This document shows positions 27,001 through 32,000 of a stretch of 32,000 nt of DNA, one piece after another. The position numbers were made by a program. The stretch lies in contig CANQSF010000004.1 in assembly GCA_947626345.1 (NCBI GenBank), positions 56,412-88,411 on the forward strand, given 5' to 3'. The first letter of the stretch is position 1. Each line of letters starts with the position of its first letter. This stretch comes from an uncultured Oscillospiraceae bacterium (GTDB lineage Bacteria; Bacillota; Clostridia; Oscillospirales; Oscillospiraceae).

Positions 27001-30000
27001 TCGGCGTCATCATGCCCCTGATCATCTACTACACCAACGACGCCGGCCAGCAGGTCATCGACCCCAGCAAGACCGTGATCTTCACCCTGATCTGCTCCAT
27101 CGGCGCGGTGGTGTGCTATCTGCTCTGCTTCCACATGACCACCGAGCGCGTCAAGGTCGAGCAGAAGACCGAGAAGTTCGACCTGGGCAAGCTGCTGAAG
27201 GGCCTGGTCACCAACCGCGCCCTGATCGGCATCGTGGTGGCCTCCATATGCCAGCTGCTGGTCCAGCTGACCAGCCAGGGCATGATGGCCTATGTGTATC
27301 CCAACTACTTCGGCAACGTCCAGGCTCAGTCCATGGCCGGCCTGGTGGGCACGATCATCACCCTGATCTGCTCTGTGTTCGTGGTGAAGCTGTCCACCAA
27401 GTTCGGCCGCAAGGAGCTGGGCATCTACGCCTCCATCCTGGGCGTGGTGGTGTTCGTCATCGCTTTCATCATGCACACCCACAACGCCTGGGTGTTCCTG
27501 GGCCTGTACTCCATCAGCTACATCGGTCTGGGCATCTTCTCCCTGATCTGCTGGGCCATGATCACCGACGTCATCGACGACACCGAGGTGCGCACCGGCT
27601 CCCGCTCCGACGGCGAGATCTACTCCGTGTACTCCTTCGCCCGGAAGCTGGGCCAGGCGGCCTCCTCCGGTCTGACCGGCCTGCTGCTGACCATGATCGG
27701 CTACAGCGCCGAGACCCAGTTCGAGGAAGCGGTCACCAACGGCATCTACAACATCACCTGCCTGGTGCCCGCCATCGGCTACGCCCTGCTGGCGGTGGTG
27801 CTGTTCTTCCTGTACCCGCTGAACAAGAAGCGGGTGGAGTCCAACGTGGCGGAGCTTGCCCGCCGCCGCGGCCAGTGATGCCTGCCGCCGCTCTCCGGCC
27901 GGACCGGGCAAGACGGTCCTGCCCCGGATGCGCGGCATGAGAACCTAAATCGGGAGGACCGGCCATCTTCGGATGGCCGGTCCTTTTTTGTCTGCTTCTG
28001 AAAGTGGGGGATGATAGGCGTTATTTTGGGAAATTTGGCAGATAATTTGCAAAAAATGTCGAAAATAAGATAAAAGTGGGGGATATGCGCCGCGATTGAC
28101 TTTATCCGCGGCTTTTAGTATAATGACCAACTGTGTGCAAGAGAAAGGAGCGGCCCATGGACCGGTCATTCATACAAAAGTGGATAGGCGACAGGGCCTT
28201 TTACCGGCGGGTGCTGGCGGTGACGCTGCCCATCATGCTACAGAACGTGGTGACCAACTTTGTGAACCTGCTGGACAACATCATGGTGGGCCAGACGGGC
28301 ACCGCCTCCATGAGCGGCGTGGCCGTGGTGGGGCAGCTGTTCTTCATCTTCAACCTGGTCATCTTCGGCACGGTCTCCGGGCCGGGCATCTTCTGCGCCC
28401 AGTTCTGGGGCGCGGGGGACGAGCGGAGCTTCAAGGCCGCCTTCCGGTATAAGCTGGCCACCGCCGTGGTCATGTGCCTGGCGTGCATGAGTGCGTTCCT
28501 CCTGCTGGGGGAGCGGCTGATCGCCCTGTACATCACCGGCGGGGCGGAGGAGACGGCCAGCGTGATGGGCTATGCAAAGGGCTATCTGGCCATCATGCTG
28601 TGGGGGATGGTCCCCTTTGCCGTGTCCACGGCCTATGCCACCACCCTGCGGGAGGCGGACCGGGGGCTGGTGCCCATGATCGCCTCCTGGCTGGCGGTGG
28701 CGGTGAACCTGGCCCTCAACTGGGTGCTGATCTTCGGCCACCTGGGCGCGCCGGCCATGGGAGTGCGGGGCGCGGCTCTGGCCACGGTGATCGCCCGGTT
28801 CGCGGAGATGGGGGTGAACGTGCTGTGGAGCCACCGCAACCGGGACAAGGTCCTGTTCACCCGGCGGATGCTGGAGGGCGCGCCCATGGGCCGGGCCATG
28901 TTCTGGGACATCACCCGCCGCAGCCTGCCCCTGACCGCCAACGAGGCGCTGTGGTGCGTGGGCACGGCAGCGCTGACCCAGATCTACTCCACCCGGGGCA
29001 TCACGGTCATGGCGGCGCTGAACATCGCCTATGTGCTCTATGACGTGTTCACGGCGGTGGCCTTCAGCCTGGGCAGTGCCATCGGCATCATCGTGGGCCA
29101 GGAGTTGGGGGCGGGCCGGACCGAGCAGGCCGTGGACACCGACCGGAAGATGCTGGCCCTGGAGGTGGGCATCGCCATGGCCATCGGACTGGTCATGGCG
29201 GGCGCGGCGTGGCTGTTCCCACGCTTTTACAACACCTCGGAGGACGTGCGCGCCTTGGCGGCGCGGCTGATCTGCGTGATGGCGGTCATCCTGCCCTTCG
29301 AGTGCCTGGCCAACGGCTGCTATTTCACCATGCGCTCCGGCGGCAGGACCGTGGTGACGTTTTTGTTCGACAGCTGCTTCACCTGGGCGGTGAACGTGCC
29401 GGCGGCGTGGCTGCTGGCCCACCGGACGGGGCTGGCCGTGGTGGCGGTCTACGCCCTGAGCGCCGCCACGGTGCTGATCAAGGACGCCGTGGGCCTGGTG
29501 CTGGTGCACAAGCGCTACTGGGTCAACACCCTGTCCGGGGTGGAGCGGCGCATCGCCTGACAGAGCGGGCGGAAGGGGGAAAAAGCCATGACACAGCAGG
29601 AGCGCCGGTGCTTTCTCATCGACAGGCTGGCAGCGGAGGAGCCGCAGTATCGCGGCCTGAAGATGCCTGCGGACGGAGCGGAGCAGAGACGGCTGCTGCG
29701 GGCGCTGATGAACGTGCGCCCGGCCAGGGCCATCGACGCGGAGTTCCTGGCGGTGCAGGACGCCTATCTGCAGGAGGAGACCGCCGCCAAGGGGATCACA
29801 GAGCTGGCCGATCTGACGGCCGCCCAGCCGGGCATCTATCTCTGGCAGGGGGACATCACCGCCTTGCGCTGCGACGCCATCGTGAACGCCGCCAACAGTG
29901 GCATGACGGGCTGTTATATCCCCGGCCACAACTGCATCGACAACTGTATCCACACCTTTGCCGGCATCCAGCTCCGGCTGGACTGCGCCGGGCTGATGGA

Positions 30001-32000
30001 GGCCCAGGGCCGCCCCGAGCCCACGGGCACGGCCAAGCTCACGGCCGCCTATAACTTGCCCTGCAAATACATCCTGCACACCGTGGGACCCATCGTGGGG
30101 GATGCGGTGACGGAGGAGGACCGGCGGCTTTTGGCCAGCTGCTACCGCGCCTGCCTGGAGCTTGCCCAGGAGCACGGGATCAGGAGCGTGGCGTTTTGCT
30201 GCATCTCCACGGGGGTGTTCCGCTTTCCCAAGGACCAGGCGGCACGGATCGCCGTGGACACCGTGCGGCGGTACCGGAAAGATACGGAGGTGATCTTCAA
30301 TGTCCACAGCGGAGAAAACTACGCCATCTATCAGCGGCTGCTCCGATAGCGTGACCCGGCTGCGGCAGGCGCTGGACAGCGCCGACGCCGTGGTGATCGG
30401 CGCGGGGGCTGGCCTGTCCACCGCGGCGGGATTCATCTACACCGGGGAGCGGTTTGAAAAACACTTCGCCGATTTCATCCGGAAGTACGGCTTTGCGGAT
30501 ATGTATTCCGGCGGGTTTTATCCCTTCGCCGACCCGGAGGAGTTCTGGGCCTATTGGAGCCGGTATATCTTCATCAACCGGTACATGGACCCGCCCAGGC
30601 CGGTCTATGACGACCTGCTGGCCCTGATGGGGGACAAGGACTATTTCGTGATCACCACCAACGTGGACCACTGCTTCCAGAAGGCCGGCTTCGCCAGGGA
30701 GAGGCTTTTTTACACCCAGGGGGATTACGGTCTCTTCCAGTGCAGCGAGCCCTGCCGGCAGGAGACCTTCGACAACGAGGCGACGGTCCGCGAGATGGTG
30801 GAGCGGCAGAGGGACATGCGCGTGCCGACGGAGCTGCTGCCCGTCTGCCCTCATTGCGGCAGGCCCATGACCATGAACCTCCGCTCCGACGACCGCTTCG
30901 CGGAGGAAGCGGGCTGGCACGCCGCGGCCGGGCGCTATGAGGAGTTTCTGCGGACGAGGATGGACGGGCGGGTGCTGTTCTGGGAGCTGGGCGTGGGCTA
31001 CAACACCCCGGGCATCATCAAGTATCCCTTCTGGCGCATGACGCGCTCCGCCCCCGGCGCCGTGTATGCGGTGCTGAACCGCAGCAAGGCCTTCGCCCCG
31101 AAAGAGATCGCGGACCGGAGCATCTGCATCAACGGGGACATCGCCGCCGTGCTGGCCCGGCTTCGCCGGGAAAAGGACGCCGGGGAGAGGGACTGACCCG
31201 AGCCAAAACAAAAAAGATCCGCCGCTGGATGAGCGGCGGATCTTTTTGCCGGCAGGGCCGGCAGGAAAAGCATGTTTCAGTTGTCGCTGCGGTTTCCGGC
31301 CGCGGCTGCGCCGCCGGCGGCGACGACGCCGGACTCGTTCTCCCGGCGGATCTCCCGCTCCCGGATGATCCGCTCCAGGGCCACGTAAATGGCCACGATG
31401 CGGTCGAGCTGGCTCTCGTCCAGCACGTCGATGTAGTACACGTCGTGCAGGGACACCCACTTCTGGTGGGTCCGGGCCAGAACGGCGCCCAGGGAGTTGA
31501 CGAACTCATAGTTGTGTTGGAGGATATCGCCCCGCATCTGCCAGCCCAGACCCTCCAGGTCGATGACGTCCTGCATCACGTGGAACCACTCGGTGCGGAC
31601 CTCTACCTTCTCGCCGTCGGCGAATTCGATGTCGTGGGTCTCGTGCAGGGAGATGGGCTTGTGGGTGATGGTGGCGATGGTCTCGCCCTCGGCGTTGCGG
31701 ACGTAGGTGGTGTCGTGGATGGAGATGGCCTTGCTCTCTACGGTGTAGAGCACTTGGTCGGATTCGTCCATGATCTCCATTTTCTTGTGGATGGAGAGCA
31801 TCTTGCTCTTCGCGTGCAGAAGCATCGTCTGTACCTCCTGAAAGTAAAATGTGGGATGCGCTGTGATGGCCGGGCCTCTCCGGCTGGGTCGGGGAGAAAG
31901 GCCCGGGGCTTTCCCTTTCTATATGGCCGCGGGGCCGCTCACATCTTCCGGGCCAGCATGTCCGGGTTGGAGCTGTGGGCCAGCGCCTCGTCCCGGCCGA

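Follow-up and report, generated by a model that had tools for sequence, protein, structure and literature searches.

In Staphylococcus aureus as well as in Streptococcus pyogenes, the genes of a zinc-dependent macrodomain (Zn-Macro) and a class-M sirtuin (SirTM) are located in an extended operon, which comprises the genes of GcvH-L, of Zn-Macro and SirTM, and of LplA2, plus those of OYE and LLM. SirTM/Zn-Macro pairs have also been described in "independent operons" (Rack 2015; PMC4518038) and as "lone SirTM/Zn-Macro pairs" whose genes partly overlap (Ariza 2024; PMC11490716), with Enterococcus faecalis and Treponema pedis as examples (PMC4518038; PMC11490716). The Zn-Macros of lone pairs do not de-modify GcvH-L, and the targets of these pairs, unknown as of Ariza 2024, are an acknowledged open question (PMC11490716).

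The window analyzed here, a stretch of 32,000 nucleotides from the genome of an Oscillospiraceae bacterium, contains a Zn-macrodomain gene followed by a SirTM gene. With a probability of roughly 0.85, as judged from the homology of both products, this locus is a minimal module of the lone or "independent operon" type for reversible protein mono-ADP-ribosylation. The first-pass annotation had regarded the pair as an orphan, on the premise that the literature describes such genes only together with gcvH-L and lplA2. This premise is wrong, since both the "independent operons" and the lone pairs lack that association. The "orphan" pair thus is not new: the same type was already described in 2015 and 2024, and the locus is an ordinary further member.

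With the described lone pairs the locus shares the arrangement of two genes, Zn-macro then SirTM, without GcvH-L or LplA2, as well as a macrodomain protein that lacks the positive GcvH-L docking patch, the positions of SauMacro R175/R176 being occupied by Gly171/Asp172 in the alignment. It differs from them in its host, an uncultured gut bacterium, in the predicted co-transcription with a gene for a MATE transporter, and in the absence of every lipoylation gene searched. Writer and eraser are orthologous to those of the extended operon (~41% identity to SpySirTM over 269 columns; E = 5e-70 for SauMacro) with all catalytic residues kept, and gene order and the habit of gene overlap are alike, whereas GcvH-L, LplA2, OYE, and LLM are absent here and elsewhere in the genome. 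Both domains are also homologous to those of the fungal Mfs1 macrodomain-SirTM fusion (8RSN; E = 5e-38 and 2e-27), but Mfs1 is a single polypeptide, whereas two separate, overlapping genes are found here.

Proteins encoded by the pair

The first gene of the pair (29588..30349, forward strand) encodes a protein of 253 amino acids with the predicted function of a protein-ADP-ribose hydrolase (eraser). It was matched by the NCBIfam protein-ADP-ribose hydrolase model NF003163 with 345 bits (cut-off 272) over residues 2–252 and also by Pfam Macro (3e-38), and its closest solved structures are the Zn-macrodomains 8RSI, 5KIV, and 8RSL (E = 5e-73 to 7e-70). Judging from its three entries, the best of these relatives, 8RSI, is presumably the Zn-Macro of archaeal origin described in 2024. 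In Zn-Macros, a Cys/His zinc loop with a Dx3H motif behind it takes the place of the glycine-rich catalytic loop (PMC11490716), and this replacement was found in the motif GCYIPGHNCIDNCIH (residues 108–122): sequence alignment with GCMQANHDCIDNIIH of SauMacro (5KIV) and GCFIPMHNCIDNIIH of 8RSI assigned C109, H114, and C116 to the zinc loop and D118 and H122 to Dx3H. Zn-Macros further possess an N-terminal three-helix bundle with loop-packing residues, R42, N46, and N123 in SauMacro (PMC11490716), to which the conserved residues R38, N42, and N119 of the macro protein correspond at the sequence level. The alignments to solved Zn-macrodomains begin at residues 3–6, and since the structure-chain alignment runs from residue 3, the N-terminal helical part is covered; the protein thus appears to carry the three-helix bundle.

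The second gene (30300..31196, forward strand) encodes a putative NAD-dependent protein mono-ADP-ribosyltransferase (writer) of 298 amino acids, as indicated by homology and key residues. Its residues 19–286 aligned with SpySirTM (5A3A) with an E-value of 1.8e-73. In SirTMs, by definition, the catalytic His is exchanged for a Gln (Q137 in SpySirTM), and Asn118 and Arg192 are conserved (PMC4518038); Q140, N121, and R195 of the protein align with these three residues. It also contains the motifs GAGAGLS (34–40), TTNVD (119–123), and QGDYG (140–144), a Cys4 zinc ribbon (C148/C152/C183/C186) formed by CSEPC (148–152) and CPHC (183–186), and the pyrophosphate loop GVGx[NT]TP that is specific to this class, as GVGYNTP (231–237). 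The gene is linked to that of the Zn-type macrodomain by adjacency and a 50-nt overlap. The same kind of linkage is present at 67 of the 81 loci, the window's own included. The first-pass annotation, which had recognized a Zn-macrodomain eraser with an N-terminal helical extension and a Cys/His cluster next to a class-M sirtuin writer with Gln for His, is thus confirmed by NF003163, 5A3A, and the residue alignments. The homology searches placed the second protein closest to SpySirTM and not to CobB models, and the retained catalytic His of a canonical deacylase was not seen at the aligned position.

Gene overlap and transcription unit

The first 17 SirTM codons run in another frame across the last macro codons, resulting in a dual-coding overlap of 50 nt (30300..30349, forward strand). 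The Shine-Dalgarno sequence GGAGGTG of the SirTM gene (30286..30292, forward strand), which is located 7 nt 5' of the ATG, is made of the macro codons Thr-Glu-Val, and the ATG at 30300 lies inside the macro codons Asn-Val. The exact overlap, with the ATG at −50, was found in 45 of 67 related loci (most others overlap by 47–71 nt), and 38 of the 44 distinct sequences of relatives retain GGAG. Since the macro protein sequence (E-V-I-F-N-V) also constrains both elements, their conservation is no independent proof of use. A downstream GTG at 30351, named earlier as the start codon that would remove the overlap, was rejected because the homologous codon encodes Ile (ATC, ATA, or ATT) in most relatives (31 of the 44 distinct sequences), and the overlap stands as originally proposed. 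Within this clade, the exact 50-nt junction with its dual coding is thus a trait that has been conserved. Ribosomes that end the eraser gene probably re-initiate at the writer gene, and by such translational coupling the writer would not be made without the eraser.

A sigma-70-type promoter-like site, TTGACT-17-TATAAT (28096..28124, forward strand; 11/12 in the promoter scan), follows the terminator hairpin of an upstream MFS operon (27955–27984) and lies 5' of a gene for a MATE-family efflux transporter (28157..29560, forward strand). The longest MATE ORF opens at GTG 28133, and the start is probably ATG 28157 behind AAAGGAG. Between the MATE and macro genes there is a gap of 27 nt with no terminator inside, and the SirTM gene is followed by a bidirectional intrinsic terminator (31211..31247; 16-bp stem, −31.1 kcal/mol, z −6.35), which is common to the unit of the pair and the convergent LOR/DUF6593 gene (31277–31825). 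The short gap and the promoter and terminator scans predict co-transcription of the MATE, macro, and SirTM genes, in this order, as one promoter-to-terminator unit. Operator-like inverted repeats were sought in the promoter region (27990–28156), where none was convincing.

Lipoylation genes and neighborhoods of related pairs

The whole genome, which is 97.9% complete, was searched with the models PF01597, PF21948, PF03099, PF00364, PF00198, and TIGR00510; as positive controls, the GCV_H and LplA-B_cat searches gave matches in 13 of 14 reference genomes. No match to GCV_H, LplA-B_cat, LipA, or 2-oxoacid_dh E2 was obtained anywhere in the genome, and a GcvH or LplA gene was found neither in the window nor in the ~6 kb downstream on the contig nor elsewhere. 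The sole BPL-family gene is BirA-like. A Biotin_lipoyl domain occurs only once, as an EAMKME biotin carrier adjoining an OadB-like subunit. The lack of gcvH-L and lplA2 reported previously for ~3 kb on either side of the pair hence extends to the whole genome, and a distant GcvH-L/LplA2 pair as the target, which the first-pass annotation had considered as a challenge to its own claim, was rejected on the basis of this search. Because the genome contains no lipoylation system, and neither GcvH-L nor LplA2, lipoylation-dependent targeting is impossible here and the target cannot be lipoyl-GcvH-L. Co-occurrence was assessed in 60 drawn relatives and this genome: 15 of the 29 SirTM-positive genomes lacked both GcvH and LplA, six of these 15 being at least 90% complete, and GcvH or LplA, where present in the sampled SirTM-positive genomes, was never on the SirTM contig. 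The pair persists in genomes devoid of lipoylation machinery, so that there must be a mode of targeting that does not depend on lipoylation.

Gut Oscillospiraceae and other Clostridia very commonly carry the pair; 272 confirmed loci were found in the genome-contig collection, and 24 of 36 congeners carry it. A comparison of orthologous neighborhoods, advocated already in the earlier work on this DNA, covered 62 related loci whose upstream DNA was long enough and revealed genes for HxlR, rSAM/SPASM, nitroreductase, or PNPOx-4Fe4S upstream of the pair in 35 of them. Operons of gut Clostridia that comprise HxlR, ACGX peptide, radical-SAM-SPASM, nitroreductase, PNPOx-4Fe4S, Zn-Macro, and SirTM genes belong to the same pair clade and share the 50-nt overlap, whereas none of their redox genes (HxlR, rSAM, nitroreductase, PNPOx-4Fe4S) occurs in the window's genome. 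Such operons with the pair were not found in the literature searched. The SirTM of the window belongs to a clade of 11 rows (support 100/97), three of which are redox-operon loci, and genomic contexts are intermixed across the SirTM tree. In three congeners (G002, G013, G016), an intact SirTM gene is located in a redox operon, and the Zn-macro gene is found next to asnS and cls on a different contig; tight linkage of the two genes thus is dispensable. The flanks of the window's pair contain genes for the breakdown of hexuronates and glycosides along with a van-like cluster and pilus genes, with no defence or mobile genes among them. The redox-operon variants of the relatives tell more than this window.

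Function of the module and alternative explanations

By homology to SpySirTM, the writer would bind NAD+ with the nicotinamide ribose positioned by N121, Q140, and R195 and would move one ADP-ribose onto a side chain of the target protein. The eraser would strip off this ADP-ribose by means of its zinc loop and Dx3H motif, as suggested by its similarity to SauMacro, SpyMacro, and the 8RSI chain. Judging from published work on other organisms and from relatives in which the pair is part of HxlR/flavin/Fe-S operons, the module would most likely act as a switch in a redox or electrophile stress response. A canonical sirtuin deacylase combined with an O-acyl-ADP-ribose deacetylase macrodomain could be read from matches to CobB-type NCBIfam models and to O-acetyl-ADP-ribose deacetylase models, yet the former reach only ~20–30 bits against cut-offs of 221–395 (a shortfall of more than 200 bits), the latter stay below their cut-offs while the protein-ADP-ribose hydrolase model is passed, and Gln140 stands at the position of the catalytic His. 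Furthermore, SirTMs have no appreciable deacylase activity, and the Q137H mutant of SpySirTM is inactive (PMC4518038), which leaves a deacylase pair extremely unlikely. The predicted shared transcription unit and the 27-nt gap would be consistent with a module serving the MATE pump, where SirTM modifies the transporter or an efflux regulator, or where the pump exports a stress-linked compound. However, this genome is the only one among 81 loci with MATE directly 5' of the pair, a search of related loci for a conserved third gene beside the pair showed neither MATE nor LOR to be conserved neighbors, and the MATE ortholog of G026 (79% nt) lies on a separate contig. The association with MATE therefore looks recent and incidental, and a role in efflux is very improbable.

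The first-pass annotation had also drawn an analogy to DarTG and SIR2 defence effectors; read in this way, the locus would be a toxin–antitoxin or anti-phage module with a toxic, NAD-consuming or ADP-ribosylating SirTM checked by a macrodomain antidote. The likeness to DarTG lies in the pairing of an ADP-ribosyl writer with a macrodomain eraser; DarT has an unrelated fold and modifies ssDNA, and DarG represents a different macrodomain subclass. The eraser-then-writer order with its conserved overlap, the patchy occurrence of the pair in the genus, and its variable neighborhood, including the intermixed contexts on the SirTM tree and the different position in G026, would fit such a module. In contrast, the macro, SirTM, MATE, and LOR proteins match no PADLOC family at E-values up to 0.01, the pair is flanked by sugar catabolism, van-like, and pilus genes instead of defence or mobile genes, the unlinked pairs of the three congeners speak against obligate coupling, and the pairs of relatives are mostly found inside HxlR-linked redox operons. 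Published SirTMs are highly target-specific, and deletion of the mfs1 fusion gene in Candida albicans alters peroxide tolerance only (PMC4518038), which also argues against such a module. The analogy thus found no support, and a toxin–antitoxin function is very unlikely. A real need to restrain SirTM could nevertheless be the reason why the eraser-then-writer overlap is conserved. On this view, which is a long shot, the lone pair would be an NAD-dependent toxin-antidote or stress-arrest module complete in itself, and it would target a housekeeping protein that is conserved and not lipoylated instead of serving as a dedicated regulatory switch; as lipoylation and the ACGX/radical-SAM redox operon are both absent, this genome would in that case be a clean system for the target search.

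Identity of the two proteins and the missing lipoylation partners

The Zn-macrodomain gene (macro, the eraser; 29588–30349, + strand) and the class-M sirtuin gene (SirTM, the writer; 30300–31196, + strand) code for 253 and 298 amino acids, respectively, and have 50 nt in common. Both open reading frames, their overlap, and every motif quoted in the first-pass annotation were located. In profile searches the macro protein matched Pfam Macro (3e-38) and scored above the cut-off of the NCBIfam equivalog NF003163 “protein-ADP-ribose hydrolase” (345 vs 272 bits, residues 2–252). The closest solved structures were zinc macrodomains, namely 8RSI (5e-73), SauMacro 5KIV and 8RSL (~6e-70), and 8RSM (8.5e-58), and the N-terminal helical part is covered by these alignments, which start at residue 3–6. 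The zinc loop and Dx3H motif (C109, H114, C116, D118, H122) align to GCMQANHDCIDNIIH of SauMacro, and R38, N42, and N119 are the counterparts of its loop-packing residues R42, N46, and N123 (Ariza 2024, PMC11490716). SauMacro R175/R176, which belong to the positive patch docking GcvH-L (PMC11490716), align with G171/D172, which fits the published absence of this patch in Zn-Macros outside the extended operon, i.e., the Staphylococcus/Streptococcus SirTM operon with GcvH-L and LplA2 (PMC11490716).

The writer matched SpySirTM (5A3A; 1.8e-73, ~41% identity over 269 columns) and the SirTM half of the fungal fusion 8RSN (2e-27); CobB-type deacylase models reached only 20–30 bits. The SirTM-defining residues of Rack 2015 (PMC4518038; N118, Q137, R192, and GVGx[NT]TP) have equivalents in N121, Q140, R195, and GVGYNTP (231–237), and the zinc ribbon is formed by C148/C152/C183/C186. 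The catalytic histidine is absent from this protein, which carries Q140.

The first-pass annotation had found neither GcvH-L nor LplA2 beside the pair, and this absence extends to the whole draft assembly (2.59 Mb, 92 contigs, estimated 97.9% complete), in which GCV_H, LplA-B_cat, the 2-oxoacid dehydrogenase E2 catalytic domain, and LipA had no match, with control genomes matching as expected. The sole BPL_LplA_LipB match has GGRGRMGR and is a BirA-like biotin ligase; a 131-aa biotin carrier (EAMKME) that adjoins an OadB-like decarboxylase subunit accounts for the sole clear Biotin_lipoyl domain. Judged by its gene content, the genome appears to be devoid of any lipoylation; since no lipoylation genes were matched, lipoyl-GcvH-L cannot be the substrate of the pair. 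In a sample of 60 relatives and the window's genome, SirTM was present in 29 genomes. Both GcvH and LplA were missing from 15 of them, six of which have a completeness of at least 90% (the window's genome G000, G003, G007, G015, G035, and G040). Where GcvH or LplA was present in SirTM genomes, it lay on contigs other than that of SirTM.

The “orphan” status of such pairs has already been described: Zn-Macros of lone SirTM/Zn-Macro pairs do not de-modify GcvH-L, and their targets are given as unknown (Ariza 2024, PMC11490716). Of the initial interpretation, the identification of both proteins stands, the premise of novelty fails, and the toxin–antitoxin analogy is unsupported. The locus makes two minor additions, a lipoylation-free host and an exactly conserved 50-nt junction.

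The 50-nt gene junction

The junction was compared in the window and 80 related loci, 67 of which (window included) have macro directly 5′ of SirTM; macro presence was taken from tblastn, because our own gene calls in related loci follow a GC3 heuristic whose “no macro” flags are unreliable. An exact 50-nt overlap with ATG at −50 was found in 45 of the 67 loci, and overlaps of 47, 56, 65, or 71 nt in most of the others; in three to four loci the macro is more distant (~50% identity) and no similar overlap is seen. In the window, ATG 30300 is the earliest start codon past the upstream in-frame stop, GGAGGTG (30286–30292) lies seven bases 5′ of it, and macro ends with the stop codon TAG at 30347–30349. 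Across 44 distinct junction sequences the ATG is embedded in macro codons Phe-Asn-Val (ttcAATGt), and the Shine–Dalgarno sequence falls on Thr-Glu-Val, with GGAG in 38. The alternative start GTG 30351 was rejected, its homologous codon being Ile (ATC, ATA, or ATT) in 31 of the 44 and GTG in only 2. Because of these patterns ATG 30300 is supported as the SirTM start, as first annotated, and on sequence comparison the overlap is a conserved feature of this clade. Conservation of the macro C-terminus (VIFNVF..DY.IY..LL) itself reaches to Staphylococcus, so part of the ATG and Shine–Dalgarno conservation is imposed by the other frame. SirTM residues 1–17 are poorly conserved as protein, as expected of an overprinted N-terminus. 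Partial gene overlap in the SirTM operon family was already noted by Ariza 2024 (PMC11490716).

Distribution and redox operons of relatives

Of 36 congeners, 24 carry the pair (58–76% identity), and the confirmed loci total 272, most of them from MAGs of rabbit and human gut Oscillospiraceae or of other Clostridia; Hominenteromicrobium mulieris and Pilosibacter fragilis also have it. One Clostridia-type pair, likewise overlapping by 50 nt, is on a contig labeled “uncultured Alistipes sp.” (L063, CANQGQ010000024.1), reflecting either mis-binning or transfer across phyla.

When neighbor genes were clustered, an upstream set was seen to recur in relatives: 23 loci encode a divergent HxlR regulator, 14 a radical-SAM/SPASM enzyme, and 11 a nitroreductase, and in 21 loci the gene immediately 5′ of macro codes for a PNPOx-like protein that includes a 4Fe-4S ferredoxin domain. 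A gene for a PNPOx-like protein is present in 10 loci, and the set also contains an ECF S-component and a SnoaL-like lipoprotein. The PNPOx/ferredoxin gene occupies the exact gcvH-L position of staphylococci. In the papers searched, SirTM was not mentioned together with HxlR. The order HxlR (divergent), radical-SAM/SPASM, nitroreductase, PNPOx/4Fe-4S ferredoxin, Zn-macro, SirTM is seen, e.g., in L055, L087, L089, L097, L065, L113, and L122, and in L031 and L032 an ORF for a small ACGX-repeat peptide is located upstream. Upstream DNA of at least 2.5 kb was available for 62 loci, of which 35 have at least one redox-operon gene and 27 are plain pairs, and both contexts are thoroughly intermixed on the SirTM tree; the window SirTM belongs to a clade of 11 rows (support 100/97), five plain, three redox, and three undetermined. 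None of the relatives' redox-operon genes occurs in the window's genome, where the pair really is minimal.

SirTM-like paralogs (open frames of ~330 and 308 aa, 34–37% identity to the window SirTM) occur as tandem pairs in some congeners (G003:C86:1990-3446; G013:C12:67588-69260; G035:C1:108980-110652; G035:C5:46652-48339). The SirTM of L037 (G003:C14, about 7835–9104) is split by a frameshift, has no adjacent macro, and is a probable pseudogene.

Split pairs, surroundings and transcription unit

The likening of the overlapping pair to toxin–antitoxin or defense modules found no positive support. Macro, SirTM, the MATE efflux-transporter gene upstream, and LOR had no match to any PADLOC model, and the surroundings consist of hexuronate and glycoside catabolism, a van-like cluster, and pilus genes. 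Moreover, three congeners (G002, G013, and G016) have an intact SirTM directly 3′ of the PNPOx/ferredoxin gene in the redox operon without adjacent macro, and their Zn-macro (68–71% identity) is found without SirTM on a different contig, where asnS, cls (cardiolipin synthase), and a Fur/PerR-like gene are its neighbors. The pair can thus do without overlap and tight linkage, though the eraser is retained. Naturally split pairs are represented by L030–L032 (these three congeners) and L132–L134.

The van-like cluster (10403–15740, − strand) comprises an alanine/serine racemase, a D-Ala-D-Ala-ligase-family gene, VanW, a histidine kinase, and an OmpR-type response regulator, and is followed by a LysR regulator (15814–16725). 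A block of GH2 (candidate beta-glucuronidase) and MFS/GPH symporter genes (24137–27879) shares 94% DNA identity with G026:C16:14673-18413; the adjoining genes share 76–82% identity with G026 and have a different arrangement, suggesting that the block was recently exchanged or is strongly conserved.

A hairpin with T-run (27955–27990) ends the upstream MFS operon and is followed by a strong sigma-70-like site (TTGACT-17-TATAAT, 28096–28124) and the MATE gene, most likely starting at ATG 28157 behind AAAGGAG. Only 27 nt without terminator separate MATE from macro, and a bidirectional terminator lies 3′ of SirTM (31211–31247; 16-bp stem, −31.1 kcal/mol, z −6.35); MATE, macro, and SirTM are predicted to form one transcription unit. 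The MATE–pair linkage is not conserved: MATE is directly 5′ of the pair in no other locus among the window and 80 related loci, and congener G026 has its MATE ortholog (79% nt) on a separate contig and the pair (76% nt) on the opposite side of the GH3/GH2/MFS block. Upstream of the MATE promoter, TGGCAGATAATTTGCA (28036–28051) resembles a sigma-54 −24/−12 element. The window's genome also encodes a second macrodomain protein of the ordinary glycine-loop MacroD type (GGGGVDGAIH; G000:C18, L135 1820–3877), whose domain lies inside a long open frame neighbored by a vWA-domain gene and HTH genes.
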